Notes under the pieces: generated by a model
Databases searched by the model: none
What the model was told of the DNA's origin: nothing
Seen by the model: the letters and a program-made list of their open reading frames with translations, nothing else
NCBI GenBank assembly: GCA_963719495.1
Contig: CAVRCI010000005.1
Span: 128,001 to 192,000 of the forward strand
DNA length: 64,000 nt
From: an uncultured Verrucomicrobiae bacterium
GTDB taxonomy: Bacteria; Verrucomicrobiota; Verrucomicrobiia; Chthoniobacterales; JAATET01
Reading direction: 5' to 3'
Shown here: positions 53,600 through 60,486 of the stretch, one piece after another
Layout: each line of letters begins with the position of its first letter
How positions within the stretch are numbered: position 1 is the first letter of the stretch
Position numbers and translations under genes: made by a program

Positions 53600-53709
53600 T
53601 TAAGAATTAAGCCATTCCCACGCCACGGCACGCCACCGAAGGGTCCGGAAAAAGCCCGGGGAGCCCATCCCCACTTAAAACTTAATTCTTAAGTCTTAAA
53701 ACTTCACCC

Positions 53710-53800
53710 GTCCTCCCTTCGCCGGCATGACCCGGATCAGGTTCAAAGGGTCGTCGGAAATCAGGTCCCAACCTCTCAGCCACATGCGGCTCCCCCGTTT
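53710..53800 (-). promoter_or_regulatory. TPP riboswitch
   Basis: Minus strand GGGGAG..GCTGAGAG...CCCTTTGAACCTGATCCGGGTCATGCCGGCGAAGGGA upstream of thiC. Confidence 0.95.
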
Positions 53801-53889
53801 CCGTTGAAAATAGGCGTGACGCCCCCCGCGTCAATCGTCGACTTTTTGCAACCTCACCCCAATCCGAAATCCGAAATCCGAAATCCGCA

Positions 53890-57834: not shown

Positions 57835-57918
57835 GCTCGGGTGGTGAAATGGCAGACACGTACGTTTGAGGGGCGTATGCCGCAAGGCATGGGGGTTCAA
57901 GTCCCCCCCCGAGCACCA
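57835..57918 (+). tRNA. tRNA-Leu(GAG) with encoded CCA
   Basis: GCTCGGG acceptor, TTGAGGG anticodon loop, variable arm, GTTCAAG, ACCA end. Confidence 0.96.
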
Positions 57919-57928
57919 TCCGAAAAAA

Positions 57929-58025
57929 GCGCGAGCTTCCAGGGGACCGCGAGCTTCCAGGGGACCGCGAGCTTCCAGGGGACCGCGAGCTTCCAGCTCG
58001 CAGTGTCGAGCTTCCAGCTCGGCAC
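57929..58025 (+). repeat. Three 18-bp tandem units (GCGAGCTTCCAGGGGACC) followed by a complete REP C
   Basis: Units at 57931, 57949 and 57967; hairpins at 57985-58025. Confidence 0.9.
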
Positions 58026-58104
58026 CCGTATCTAAAACGCGAAGCGTCAAACACCCCACCCTTGACGCCCCAGCCCACCACAAGTTAAGAACCACTCAAT
58101 CTCT

Positions 58105-58297
58105 ATGAGCCACTCACCCAAATCCACAATCCCCACCGCACTGGTCAACCGGTTCGTCGCGTGGTGCCTGGATTCCGTGAACCTCCGTCCGATGGTCATC
58201 GTCAGCCCAGGAGGCCCGACCGCGAGCAGCTGATTTCCGAAAGCAAAAAGCCCCCTTTCCGAAAAGCCCCGCTCGCCAACCGCGAGCGGGGTTTTTC
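58105..58297 (+). promoter_or_regulatory. Putative leader-peptide transcription attenuator
   Basis: uORF ending at TGA 58231-58233; terminator 58262-58296; the terminator 3'-arm sequence ACCGCGAGC is repeated at 58219-58227. Confidence 0.65.
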
Positions 58298-58353
58298 GTT
58301 TGGCACCTTTCACCACCCGCCACAAGTCACCCGCCACTCACTCATCACCAACC

Positions 58354-59124
58354 ATGAAAAACCACGAAGCCATCCTCTCCGCCCTCGCCCGCATCGAACG
58401 GGCGCACGGCGTTCGCGTGCTCCTCGCCGTCGAATCCGGCAGCCGGGCTTGGGGCTTCGCGTCCCGTGACAGCGACTTCGACGTCCGCTTCATCTACGCG
58501 CACGCCCCGGAGTGGTATCTGTCCGTCGACGAACACCGCGACGTCATCGAAGTCCCGATCTCCGACGACCTCGACGTCACCGGCTGGGATCTCCGCAAGG
58601 CCCTCAAGCTCCTGCGCAAATCCAACCCCTCGCTCCTCGAGTGGATCAAATCCCCGATCGTCTACCGCGCCGACCCCGCGTTCACGCTCACGTTCGGCCT
58701 GCTCGCGTCCGAGTTCCATTCGCCCGACCGCCTCTTCCGTCACTACCTGCGGATGGCCCGCGGAAACTTCAAGGATCTGGCGCGCGCCGACGGTGTGCGG
58801 CTGAAAAAATACCTCTACGTCCTCCGCCCGATCCTCGCCTGCCGTTGGATCGAGCGGAGTCTTGGCCCCGTCCCCATGCGCTTCCAAACCCTCGCCGACA
58901 CCCTCCTCGACGACGCGAACCTGCGTTTCCACGTCGCCGTCCTCGTCGCGCGCAAACGCGCCGGCGAAGAGCTCGACCTCGCTCCCCGCATCCCCGCGCT
59001 CCACACCTTCATCGAAAGCGAACTCATCCGGTTGGAGAAAATCGCGCCCGCCGAGCCACCCCAGCCCGACAGCCTCTTCCTCAACCAATTCTTCCAGGAC
59101 TACTGCCTCCCAACCGCCGCGTAA
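58354..59124 (+). CDS. Pol-beta superfamily nucleotidyltransferase (RlaP/YcgL-like)
   Basis: ESGSRAWGFASRDSDFDVRFIY, GWDLRKAL, SNPSLLEW, KKYLYVLRP. Confidence 0.92.
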   Translation: MKNHEAILSALARIERAHGVRVLLAVESGSRAWGFASRDSDFDVRFIYAHAPEWYLSVDEHRDVIEVPISDDLDVTGWDLRKALKLLRKSNPSLLEWIKSPIVYRADPAFTLTFGLLASEFHSPDRLFRHYLRMARGNFKDLARADGVRLKKYLYVLRPILACRWIERSLGPVPMRFQTLADTLLDDANLRFHVAVLVARKRAGEELDLAPRIPALHTFIESELIRLEKIAPAEPPQPDSLFLNQFFQDYCLPTAA

Positions 59125-59129
59125 CCACG

Positions 59130-59165
59130 ACCGATAAAACGTAACGGCCGTTACGTTTTATCGGT
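59130..59165. repeat. Perfect 36-bp spacer-less palindrome
   Basis: ACCGATAAAACGTAACGG|CCGTTACGTTTTATCGGT. Confidence 0.95.
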
Positions 59166-59212
59166 AAGCGCGGGACCCGCCTCACCCGAATCGAGCATTC
59201 CACGACCCTCCG

Positions 59213-60421
59213 ATGACAACCACTTTTCAACCCCTTTCCACGCCCGCCCCCTGGCGACAGTGGGGCCACGACCTCGACGCCAACGCCGTCGAGCAAATGG
59301 CCAACGCCTGCACCCTCCCGGTCGCCGTCGCCGGAGCCCTCATGCCGGACGCCCACCTCGGTTACGGACTCCCCATCGGCGGCGTCCTGGCCACGGAGGA
59401 CGCCGTGATTCCCTACGCCGTCGGCGTCGACATCGCCTGCCGGATGCGGCTCACCGTTTACGATCTCAAGCCCAGCCTGATCGCCGGACAGCGCGACCGC
59501 TTGGCGAAAATCATCGAATCCGAGACCCGCTTCGGCGTCGGCGTCGTGTTCAAGGACCGCCGCGACCACAACGTGATGGACGACCCCGACTGGGAGGCGA
59601 TCCCGCTCACGAAGAGACTCCGCGACAAAGCCTGGGGCCAACTCGGCACGAGCGGCAGCGGCAATCACTTCGTGGAATTCGGCACCTTCACCGTCAACGA
59701 CCCGACCCTCGGCCTCGACACCGACCGGAGCTACGTCGCCCTGCTCACCCACAGCGGCTCCCGCGGCACCGGCGCGCAGATCTGCGCCGAATACAGCAAG
59801 CGCGCCATGGCCCGCCACCCCAACCTGCCGAAAAACCTCAAGCACCTCGCCTGGCTCCCGCTCGACGAAGCCGACGGCGCGGAATACTGGACCGCCATGA
59901 ACCTCATGGGCCGCTACGCCGCCGCCAACCACGCGTGCATCCACCACCACATCGCCCGCGCCCTCGGCGAGAAACCCCTCCTCGACGTCGAAAACCACCA
60001 CAACTTCGCGTGGAAGGAGACCCACACCATCGACGGCCAACCCCGCGAACTCATCGTCCACCGCAAAGGCGCGACCCCGGCGGGCGAAGGCGTCCTCGGC
60101 GTCATCCCCGGCAGCATGACCGCGCCCGGATTCCTCGTCCGAGGCAGAGGCGAACCCACGTCCCTGCGCAGCGCCTCCCACGGCGCCGGCCGCGTCATGA
60201 GCCGCACCCAAGCCAAGCAATCCTTCACTTGGAGCGGGACCAAGAAGATCCTCGCCGACCACGGAGTCGAACTCCTCAGCGCCGGCATCGACGAAGTCCC
60301 TGGAGTCTACAAAGACATCCACCAAGTCATGGCCGCCCAGACCGACTTGGTCGACACCCTGGCCCGCTTCGACCCCAAGCTCGTCAAAATGTGCCCCGCC
60401 GGCGAACGCCCCGAAGACTGA
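59213..60421 (+). CDS. rtcB: RNA ligase RtcB
   Basis: MPDAHLGYGLPIG, GVDIACRM, GSGNHFVE, HSGSRG, HRKGAT, SHGAGR, DEVPGVYK. Confidence 0.96.
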   Translation: MTTTFQPLSTPAPWRQWGHDLDANAVEQMANACTLPVAVAGALMPDAHLGYGLPIGGVLATEDAVIPYAVGVDIACRMRLTVYDLKPSLIAGQRDRLAKIIESETRFGVGVVFKDRRDHNVMDDPDWEAIPLTKRLRDKAWGQLGTSGSGNHFVEFGTFTVNDPTLGLDTDRSYVALLTHSGSRGTGAQICAEYSKRAMARHPNLPKNLKHLAWLPLDEADGAEYWTAMNLMGRYAAANHACIHHHIARALGEKPLLDVENHHNFAWKETHTIDGQPRELIVHRKGATPAGEGVLGVIPGSMTAPGFLVRGRGEPTSLRSASHGAGRVMSRTQAKQSFTWSGTKKILADHGVELLSAGIDEVPGVYKDIHQVMAAQTDLVDTLARFDPKLVKMCPAGERPED

Positions 60422-60425
60422 AATC

Positions 60426-60486
60426 GGGGGAGCGCACGCGTCCCGCGTGCGAGATGCGGCGTCCCGCCGCATCACCCGGCAATGCG
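60426..60486 (+). repeat. REP-like family B copy
   Basis: Near-identical to 30792-30852; variant at 62077-62123. Confidence 0.88.

Follow-up and report, generated by a model that had tools for sequence, protein, structure and literature searches.

A putative ribosome-coupled attenuator leader before rlaP-rtcB and tRNA arrays in Verrucomicrobiia

The leader and its operon in the window

The stretch of DNA analysed here (64,000 nucleotides from an uncultured Verrucomicrobiae bacterium, contig CAVRCI010000005.1; the whole stretch is referred to as the window) carries the RNA-repair operon rlaP-rtcB, which is preceded by a leader at 58062-58296. The leader is composed of a candidate TTGAC promoter, a uORF (upstream open reading frame), a stop codon within a predicted antiterminator and an intrinsic terminator, and, on the strength of the modelling described below, it is very probably a ribosome-coupled transcription attenuator with readthrough when the ribosome is late or absent. 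The nucleotidyltransferase RlaP is encoded by rlaP (58354-59124, + strand) and an RNA ligase of 402 aa by rtcB (59213-60421, + strand), each product being a full-length profile match over cut-off (PF10127, 296 bits, E 3e-88 and PF01139, 288 bits, E 2e-85, respectively). Against the model of prfH-linked RtcB (TIGR03073) the window RtcB scored 114.6 bits, under the cut-off of 271.8, and the motifs which we take to be its metal-binding and guanylylation sites were located in the sequence; by these features the enzyme is apparently intact and of a subfamily other than that of the RtcB-like ArmZ. The sequence-only reading, made earlier from the letters of this DNA, had seen no RtcR, and this was borne out for the source genome (98.6% complete), in which neither RtcR (PF06956) nor RtcA (PF01137) was matched, the same profiles being matched in an E. 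coli control. PrfH (TIGR03072) gave nothing over cut-off in the source genome.

The candidate promoter at 58062-58091 (+ strand) reads TTGACG, 18 nt, TAAGAA, and its TTGACG element lies 43 nt upstream of the uORF ATG; transcription would start a few bases before the uORF. In relatives the form is TTGACN, mostly 17 nt, then TA, and the 50 leaders listed have it 38-53 nt ahead of their uORF ATG. The window element fails a strict sigma-70 scan, and a simple consensus scan of the window for promoters and terminators called neither the leader promoter nor the leader terminator. The uORF (58105-58233, + strand, 42 codons from ATG 58105 to TGA 58233) contains 17 of the 20 amino acids (E, Q and Y are absent) and its ATG has no Shine-Dalgarno (SD) sequence; at the uORF ATG of the family, an SD-like motif was found in 1 of 53 leaders. 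The in-frame GTG 58177 and ATG 58192, proposed earlier as further starts, are not conserved and had to be dropped, the conserved start being ATG 58105. A long hairpin (P1) is predicted within the uORF at 58114-58180 (+ strand), weak in the window copy (z 0.1), for which a role as an RNA-polymerase pause or a ribosome brake is possible on modelling grounds. A contiguous conserved P1 register (nt 17-23 with 60-66) was found in a 15-member Luteolibacter-type group, and no single register stands out in the window clade. Near the uORF end lies the SD-like GGAGG (58210-58214, + strand), matching the anti-SD at the 3' end of the genome's 16S rRNA.

The terminator (58262-58301, + strand, -25.9 kcal/mol) has its stem at 58262-58296, comprising the 5' arm (58262-58276), the loop CAACC and the 3' arm with the U run (58282-58296), and a U-rich tail to 58301. 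The RlaP ATG (58354) is located 57 nt past the stem, and no conserved sequence was found in this 57-nt gap in relatives. The positions of the terminator and the uORF agree with those first read from the sequence, and with them came the proposal that a repeat in the uORF tail acts as an antiterminator. The 9-nt direct repeat (58219-58227 and 58279-58287) is present and the tail is predicted to pair with the terminator 5' arm, as proposed; what did not stand is the extent of the repeat's part, since only its GCGAGC pairs (58222-58227 with 58271-58276), within a longer antiterminator hairpin (58222-58276, + strand, -18.3 kcal/mol) with inner stems across the stop codon. The leader was unmatched in Rfam, by which only a thiamine pyrophosphate (TPP) riboswitch and one tRNA were found in the window at gathering score. 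Searches of the source genome with a peptide profile, a DNA profile and a covariance model found no further leader copy, so the genome has one copy only.

Conservation, covariation and folding

RtcB was matched in 19 of 41 related genomes, and rlaP adjoins rtcB in 11 loci. A uORF of 39-44 codons, the tail repeat and the terminator were found at most 400 nt upstream of rlaP in ten of them (L007 and L008, among the ten, are nearly identical), and in the eleventh (G012, same family) the leader heads a tRNA array and lies about 7 kb upstream, so that the layout noticed in the window is real and not due to chance. The order in G012 is leader, 24 sense-strand tRNA calls (ARAGORN, relaxed setting), Fic, TROVE, rlaP, rtcB and HNH, and its uORF has 46 codons with all 20 amino acids. 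Because leader, array and repair genes occur together there, the window leader is best regarded as a larger module in trimmed form. The RtcB of many relatives (L008-L010, L013, L088-L091 and others) bears an N-terminal extension of about 60 residues (about 464 aa in total), which is lacking in the window's genus.

Covariation was estimated over 52 leaders. In the terminator 93.3% of cells were paired, with 43 double changes versus 12.0 in shuffles, and in the antiterminator 84.6% of cells were paired, with 23 double changes versus 10.9; none of 500 shuffles was as high for the antiterminator, and slid registers were 26-46% paired. The ten near relatives, located without any pattern, gave 7 antiterminator double changes versus 1.7 in shuffles. 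By RNAalifold on the near relatives the terminator was recovered, and P1 and the antiterminator were not. The uORF and the duplicated arm, on whose conservation among relatives the sequence-only reading had staked its proposal, are conserved and covary in the aligned leaders.

Folding of the nascent RNA was done in silico on 53 leaders with and without a ribosome mask. The uORF tail paired with the terminator 5' arm at a probability above 0.5 in 51 of the 53 leaders, the mean being 0.82 as against 0.38 with shuffled tails. When the mask was placed on the stop codon the terminator formed in 53/53 leaders, and in the window the mask abolished the antiterminator once the A site was at codon 37, the pairing falling from 0.75 to 0.07. 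A frame-selected uORF lies upstream of the terminator, the antiterminator and the terminator share one arm and are mutually exclusive, and in the masked folds the antiterminator arm is covered by a ribosome that has reached the end of the uORF, as is expected of a ribosome-dependent attenuator. The modelling supports the earlier proposal that a ribosome at the uORF stop would mask the antiterminator (OFF) and that stalling would free it (ON). The fold of 58170-58300 that had been suggested as a check proved non-discriminating, the terminator probability being 1.0 both masked and unmasked.

The leader family, its uORFs and neighbouring elements

A search pattern built from the 3' part of the leader only gave 108 metagenome hits, and the 99 with at least 250 nt upstream were grouped into 47 clusters at 80% identity. 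TTGAC was found within 300 nt in 36 of the 47 clusters, and in 36/36 of these an ATG located 33-60 nt past TTGAC starts a frame that stays open to the conserved stop, as against 0 in each other frame; the interval of 33-60 nt had been picked after the near relatives were examined and was applied to all frames alike. Among the remaining 11 clusters, one is a chance hit within a coding sequence and several are likely to be variants. The metagenome uORFs have 39-70 codons (35-70 in the family overall). Downstream genes could be followed over 1 kb or more in 24 of the clusters with promoter and uORF, and of these 23 show tRNA, rlaP or rtcB and 18 at least three tRNAs.

A covariance model of the leader 3' part gave matches in 59 of 151 genomes of the class at E 0.01, a figure which is not a family count, many weak matches being ordinary terminators after tRNAs or genes. 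Twenty regions, 19 of them from covariance-model matches, were fetched by choice and not at random. In ten of the 20 there is a tRNA array, with 7-27 calls on the sense strand, and 6 of the ten have rtcB as well; HNH, TROVE/Ro60 and Band 7 (slipin) genes recur, and two regions are ordinary gene ends. For the held-out check, 15 leaders were obtained among the 19 regions examined. The named records bearing the leader are labelled Spartobacteria, Chthoniobacterales, Luteolibacter, Akkermansiaceae and Prosthecobacter, and, as judged by sequence matches, the family is found across Verrucomicrobiia. Convincing matches among 96 RtcB/RlaP loci of mixed phyla were restricted to Verrucomicrobia records, and a search of 121 genomes from the phylum of a Planctomycete, made without a positive control, yielded no leader. 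An all-20 leader before a tRNA array in a record titled Chitinophaga (L353 in G423) may be due to transfer or misbinning. A viral scan returned 2 IMG/VR contigs of about 29 kb (L306 and L307), both with a bacterial-type leader-rlaP-rtcB that matches a metagenome cluster; they may be prophage-borne or host DNA. The leader also stands before MFS, EamA and ABC transporter genes (L320, L322, L326, L349, L347 and L319), and this placement suggests a wider translation-stress regulon including efflux.

Several peculiarities of the array loci were recorded. A stretch of 300-500 nt with shared motifs recurs between the terminator and the first tRNA (L277/L313, L314 and L312) and had no Rfam match, only tRNAs being found by Rfam on 7 array loci; this stretch 3' of the terminator is possibly a structured RNA. 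Ile(TAT) is among the unusual anticodons in the arrays of L308, L309, L315 and L193, and L318 has one Gly(ACC) call (ARAGORN, partly relaxed setting). In L311 the tRNAs are interspersed with a Ro60 gene and with two rtcB genes that differ from each other. In another family (L046, L047 and L051), a repeated motif with inverted arms, unrelated to the leader, was seen upstream of RlaP-fusion genes of about 630 aa.

The uORF peptides are not conserved family-wide; the frame, length, end position and repertoire are, and no conserved control-codon run was found in the family uORFs. Over 52 uORFs (L090 was left out as a duplicate of L261), the mean number of distinct amino acids was 18.6 versus 17.2 in position-preserving shuffles, and all 20 were present in 16/52 versus 2.1 expected, with a repertoire excess in 20 of 23 peptide clades. 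The held-out leaders gave 9/16 rows with all 20 versus 0.5 expected, the off-frames giving 2 and 2; an ordinary gene end accounts for one of the rows, and 3 of the 19 regions yielded none. An enlarged held-out set gave 11/21. All-20 uORFs were found in 9/21 array-linked leaders and in 2/19 leaders directly before rlaP or rtcB. GGAG or GAGG occurs in the last 24 to 6 nt of 34/52 uORFs and 17/21 held-out ones, versus 3.5 and 0.9 expected if the remainder of the uORFs is taken as the reference and 9.5 and 5.7 if shuffled tails are. The motif lies mostly at -13, in a segment (-13 to -11) whose pairing with the terminator arm is poor (7, 12 and 10 of 36 at the three positions); from its sequence, it would park the ribosome near the stop by anti-SD pairing.

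As to the surroundings of the operon, the gene for tRNA-Leu(GAG) at 57835-57918 (+ strand), the sole Leu call with a GAG anticodon in the genome, is context outside the switch. Tandem 17-nt repeats lie behind it (57930-58025; about 62 sites in the genome), a repeat of another genome-wide family lies behind rtcB (60425-60470; about 126 sites), and a perfect palindrome of about 34 bp, similar to repetitive extragenic palindromic elements, lies between rlaP and rtcB (59131-59165; about 41 genome copies, missing here in relatives). These were considered as operon-specific elements and ruled out, being members of genome-wide repeat families. The TPP riboswitch (53697-53806, - strand, Rfam match) is located upstream of a gene which we take from its sequence features to be thiC-like.

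Proposed mechanism, rival explanations and known systems

According to the proposed mechanism, RNA polymerase would start a few bases before the uORF. If the first ribosome is on time at the last six or so codons, perhaps held there by GGAGG, it would cover the antiterminator 5' arm, and the terminator would then fold and an RNA of about 200 nt would be released (OFF). A ribosome that is late, is stalled anywhere upstream or never loads would let the antiterminator form first, and the polymerase would read into rlaP-rtcB (ON). The trigger would be a general slowing of translation and not a peptide motif. In the family, a long amino-acid-complete uORF would sample the tRNA pool, with spare tRNAs and RNA-repair enzymes as the output, and the window copy would be a trimmed version with no array and a less complete uORF. 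The anatomy, frame conservation, covariation, operon content and amino-acid excess were observed in silico, and we infer promoter activity, translation, polarity in vivo and the inducing signal. The connection with tRNA arrays and the amino-acid-complete uORFs were missed by the sequence-only reading and are the main point of the leader family. We give about an even chance to sampling of the tRNA pool as the selected function of the uORF family-wide, and a lower one for the window copy. Similarly balanced is a tRNA census, in which the uORF would call for the tRNAs of all amino acids at least once each, the internal SD would park the ribosome, and tRNA loss or a ribosome block would induce a rescue island.

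A number of results weigh against this attenuator and its census. At full length and without a ribosome, the terminator is favoured in 41/53 leaders; in the window it is 7.6 kcal/mol more stable than the antiterminator, which without a ribosome holds to a free 3' end at 58287 and loses at 58288-58289. With the window terminator winning at equilibrium, the ON state must therefore be kinetic and is perhaps partial. The last bases of the nascent RNA are hidden by the polymerase, therefore the time for strand exchange is short and a kinetic ON state is plausible. As regards covariation, several paired columns were fixed by the metagenome search pattern itself, only two of the free positions show weak co-variation across the 36 metagenome clusters (p about 0.02-0.06), one pair holds in just 18/36 clusters, and the sequences are related, which inflates the shuffle tests, so that shuffle counts are not probabilities. 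As regards the repertoire, off-frames also reach 20 amino acids in 3 and 4 of 52 uORFs, the window uORF is ordinary (17 versus 15.4, p 0.14), and W, M and H contribute most to the excess, part of which may come from hairpin pairing, with E and V below the null. As regards the downstream genes, four fetched copies lead to MFS or ABC transporters and others precede EamA or MFS genes.

It was also considered that the hairpin has no role but to end the transcript of tRNA-Leu, or to fix a constant leak, with an incidental uORF and with rlaP-rtcB under its own downstream promoter. The tRNA-Leu lies 187 nt upstream of the uORF with no + strand terminator called between them by the simple scan, and its transcript may read on into the leader; in L003 and L006 the uORF ATG is within about 20 nt of the tRNA-Leu end, and because the leader abuts the tRNA without TTGAC it is probably there on the tRNA promoter. 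The terminator, too, wins at equilibrium. Nevertheless, there is no tRNA upstream of the leader in five near relatives (L004, L007, L008, L012 and L020), by which a "tRNA terminator only" reading is removed, and elsewhere the leader heads arrays. The leader, whose hairpin an end of the tRNA-Leu transcript would have explained away, has its own conserved upstream TTGAC; the uORF frame is kept in 36/36 clusters, the antiterminator covaries, and the 57-nt gap, where such a downstream promoter would lie, is unconserved. Judged by gene order, the leader moves with its operon and not with tRNA-Leu, and we regard this explanation as very improbable. For L003 and L006, the attenuator seems to be carried along on the transcript of a housekeeping tRNA. 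It is improbable that the uORF encodes an arrest peptide (W20-x-x-D-C-V) which, while nascent, senses a single ligand, a single drug or one set of codons (for instance Trp or Cys). M1, W20 and V25 are invariant in the uORF peptides of 10 near relatives, and W and C occur in 50/53 and 45/53 uORFs, respectively; against this, a peptide profile found only one clade in 401 genomes (other hits had E above 0.003), Cys is swapped for Ser or Arg, the codon-position conservation of 0.64/0.69/0.68 in the near clade shows no third-position or synonymous relaxation, and the motif codons are hairpin-paired in several members. As a family feature, W-x-x-D-C-V was rejected, being clade-restricted and overlapping predicted hairpins.

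An attenuator that mainly detects failed initiation, termination or recycling, with amino-acid completeness as a by-product of length and RNA structure, is unlikely but has to be taken seriously. It would fit the lack of an SD before the uORF ATG in 52/53 leaders, the SD-like element just before the stop, the lower completeness of the window clade (all 20 in 2/19) and the uORF ATG being hairpin-paired in some near relatives only. The replication of the all-20 excess in the held-out leaders and across 20/23 peptide clades speaks against it, as does the persistence of about 0.8 extra residue types per uORF without W, H and M in the held-out leaders. ATG pairing is not family-wide either: a hairpin sequestering the start codon was rejected as a family trait, the pairing of the ATG region being 0.50 versus 0.52 in codon shuffles, with 26/53 above the control. 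That the main product is the terminated RNA of about 200 nt or a small peptide acting in trans is scarcely probable; the OFF state would yield a stable structured RNA, and folding of the uORF region is better than in codon shuffles in 23/53 leaders (z below -2), but the peptide and the P1 sequence are unconserved family-wide and the leader is always directly 5' of an operon.

In the literature covered (mostly open articles without supplements, to whose accessible text the statements on published systems below are confined), neither the leader nor attenuator control of bacterial tRNA arrays was found described. RtcR-independent control of an RtcB gene has precedents in PA5471.1-armZ and TrcR, and its novelty had been overrated by the sequence-only reading. 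In PA5471.1-armZ (PA5471, RtcB-like)-PA5470 of Pseudomonas aeruginosa, leader-peptide attenuation is described as released by ribosome stalling (PMC12057347). A uORF-dependent transcription attenuation before an RtcB-family gene is shared with that system, as far as it is described there. The window does not belong to a PA5471.1-armZ-prfH module, its RtcB being not of the prfH-linked subtype and standing alongside RlaP with no PrfH over cut-off; no MexZ anti-repressor role is known here, and the leader would also gate tRNA arrays. The PA5471.1 leader peptide, with 13 codons, is much shorter than the uORFs of 35-70 codons here, and the likeness noted is one of logic. In mycobacteria, the whiB7 uORF is reported to favour a Rho-independent terminator under good translation and an antiterminator under poor translation, its sequence being variable and its composition setting which starvation or tRNA defects are sensed (PMC10274678). 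The attenuation logic is the same; in the text accessible, whiB7 uORFs are alanine-enriched and control a transcription factor, whereas the present family is enriched for completeness and would control tRNAs and repair enzymes directly. Membership among amino-acid-specific attenuators (trp, his, ilv) is not indicated, there being no codon run and the downstream genes being tRNA and repair genes.

The Anabaena trn L-array is described as cryptic and as induced by translational stress under a regulation shared with rtcB and with genes for an HNH nuclease, a slipin and a DMT transporter; L-arrays are reported in Verrucomicrobia too, and TrcR is described as a DNA-binding repressor that is restricted to cyanobacteria and acts at promoter direct repeats (PMC8421152, PMC10272220). 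The same kinds of genes follow the leader here, where the control would be a cis RNA switch and not a repressor. Long same-strand non-periodic arrays with HNH and rtcB neighbours, by which L-arrays are recognized, were found in relatives, the window being without an array. The operons rtcBA and rsr-yrlBA-rtcBA of E. coli and Salmonella are under RtcR and sigma-54. With these RtcR systems (PMC10272220), RtcB is shared as an output, and TROVE/Ro60 in some family members. The window operon is not an RtcR-regulated rtcBA, neither rtcR nor rtcA being found in the source genome, and the signal would come via ribosome progress and not via a protein sensor of damaged tRNA. RlaP was reported in a preprint, whose subject in the text accessible is enzymology, to add 1-2 nucleoside monophosphates to the 3'-OH of damaged RNA, its end incompatibility with RtcB being left unresolved there (PMC12776372); the window RlaP is a full-length family member beside an RNA ligase.

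An attenuator before rtcB is already known, and what is new here is a putative class-wide RNA switch over cryptic tRNA arrays together with a replicated excess of amino-acid-complete uORFs. The regulation of cryptic long tRNA arrays had been worked out only for Anabaena, and few inducers are known for RtcB operons that lack RtcR; a portable leader of about 240 nt predicts array control for Verrucomicrobiia. It would be a third solution for one tRNA-rescue gene set, the others being the RtcR protein sensor and the TrcR repressor. A uORF selected for completeness would invert the classic one-codon attenuator design and could serve as a tRNA-damage biosensor. If the census reading is true, up to about 27 spare tRNAs with RtcB, RlaP, Ro60 and HNH would be induced by ribotoxin cleavage or starvation, and the leader, as a counterpart of TrcR and RtcR made of RNA alone, would explain the silencing and the induction of cryptic arrays outside cyanobacteria.

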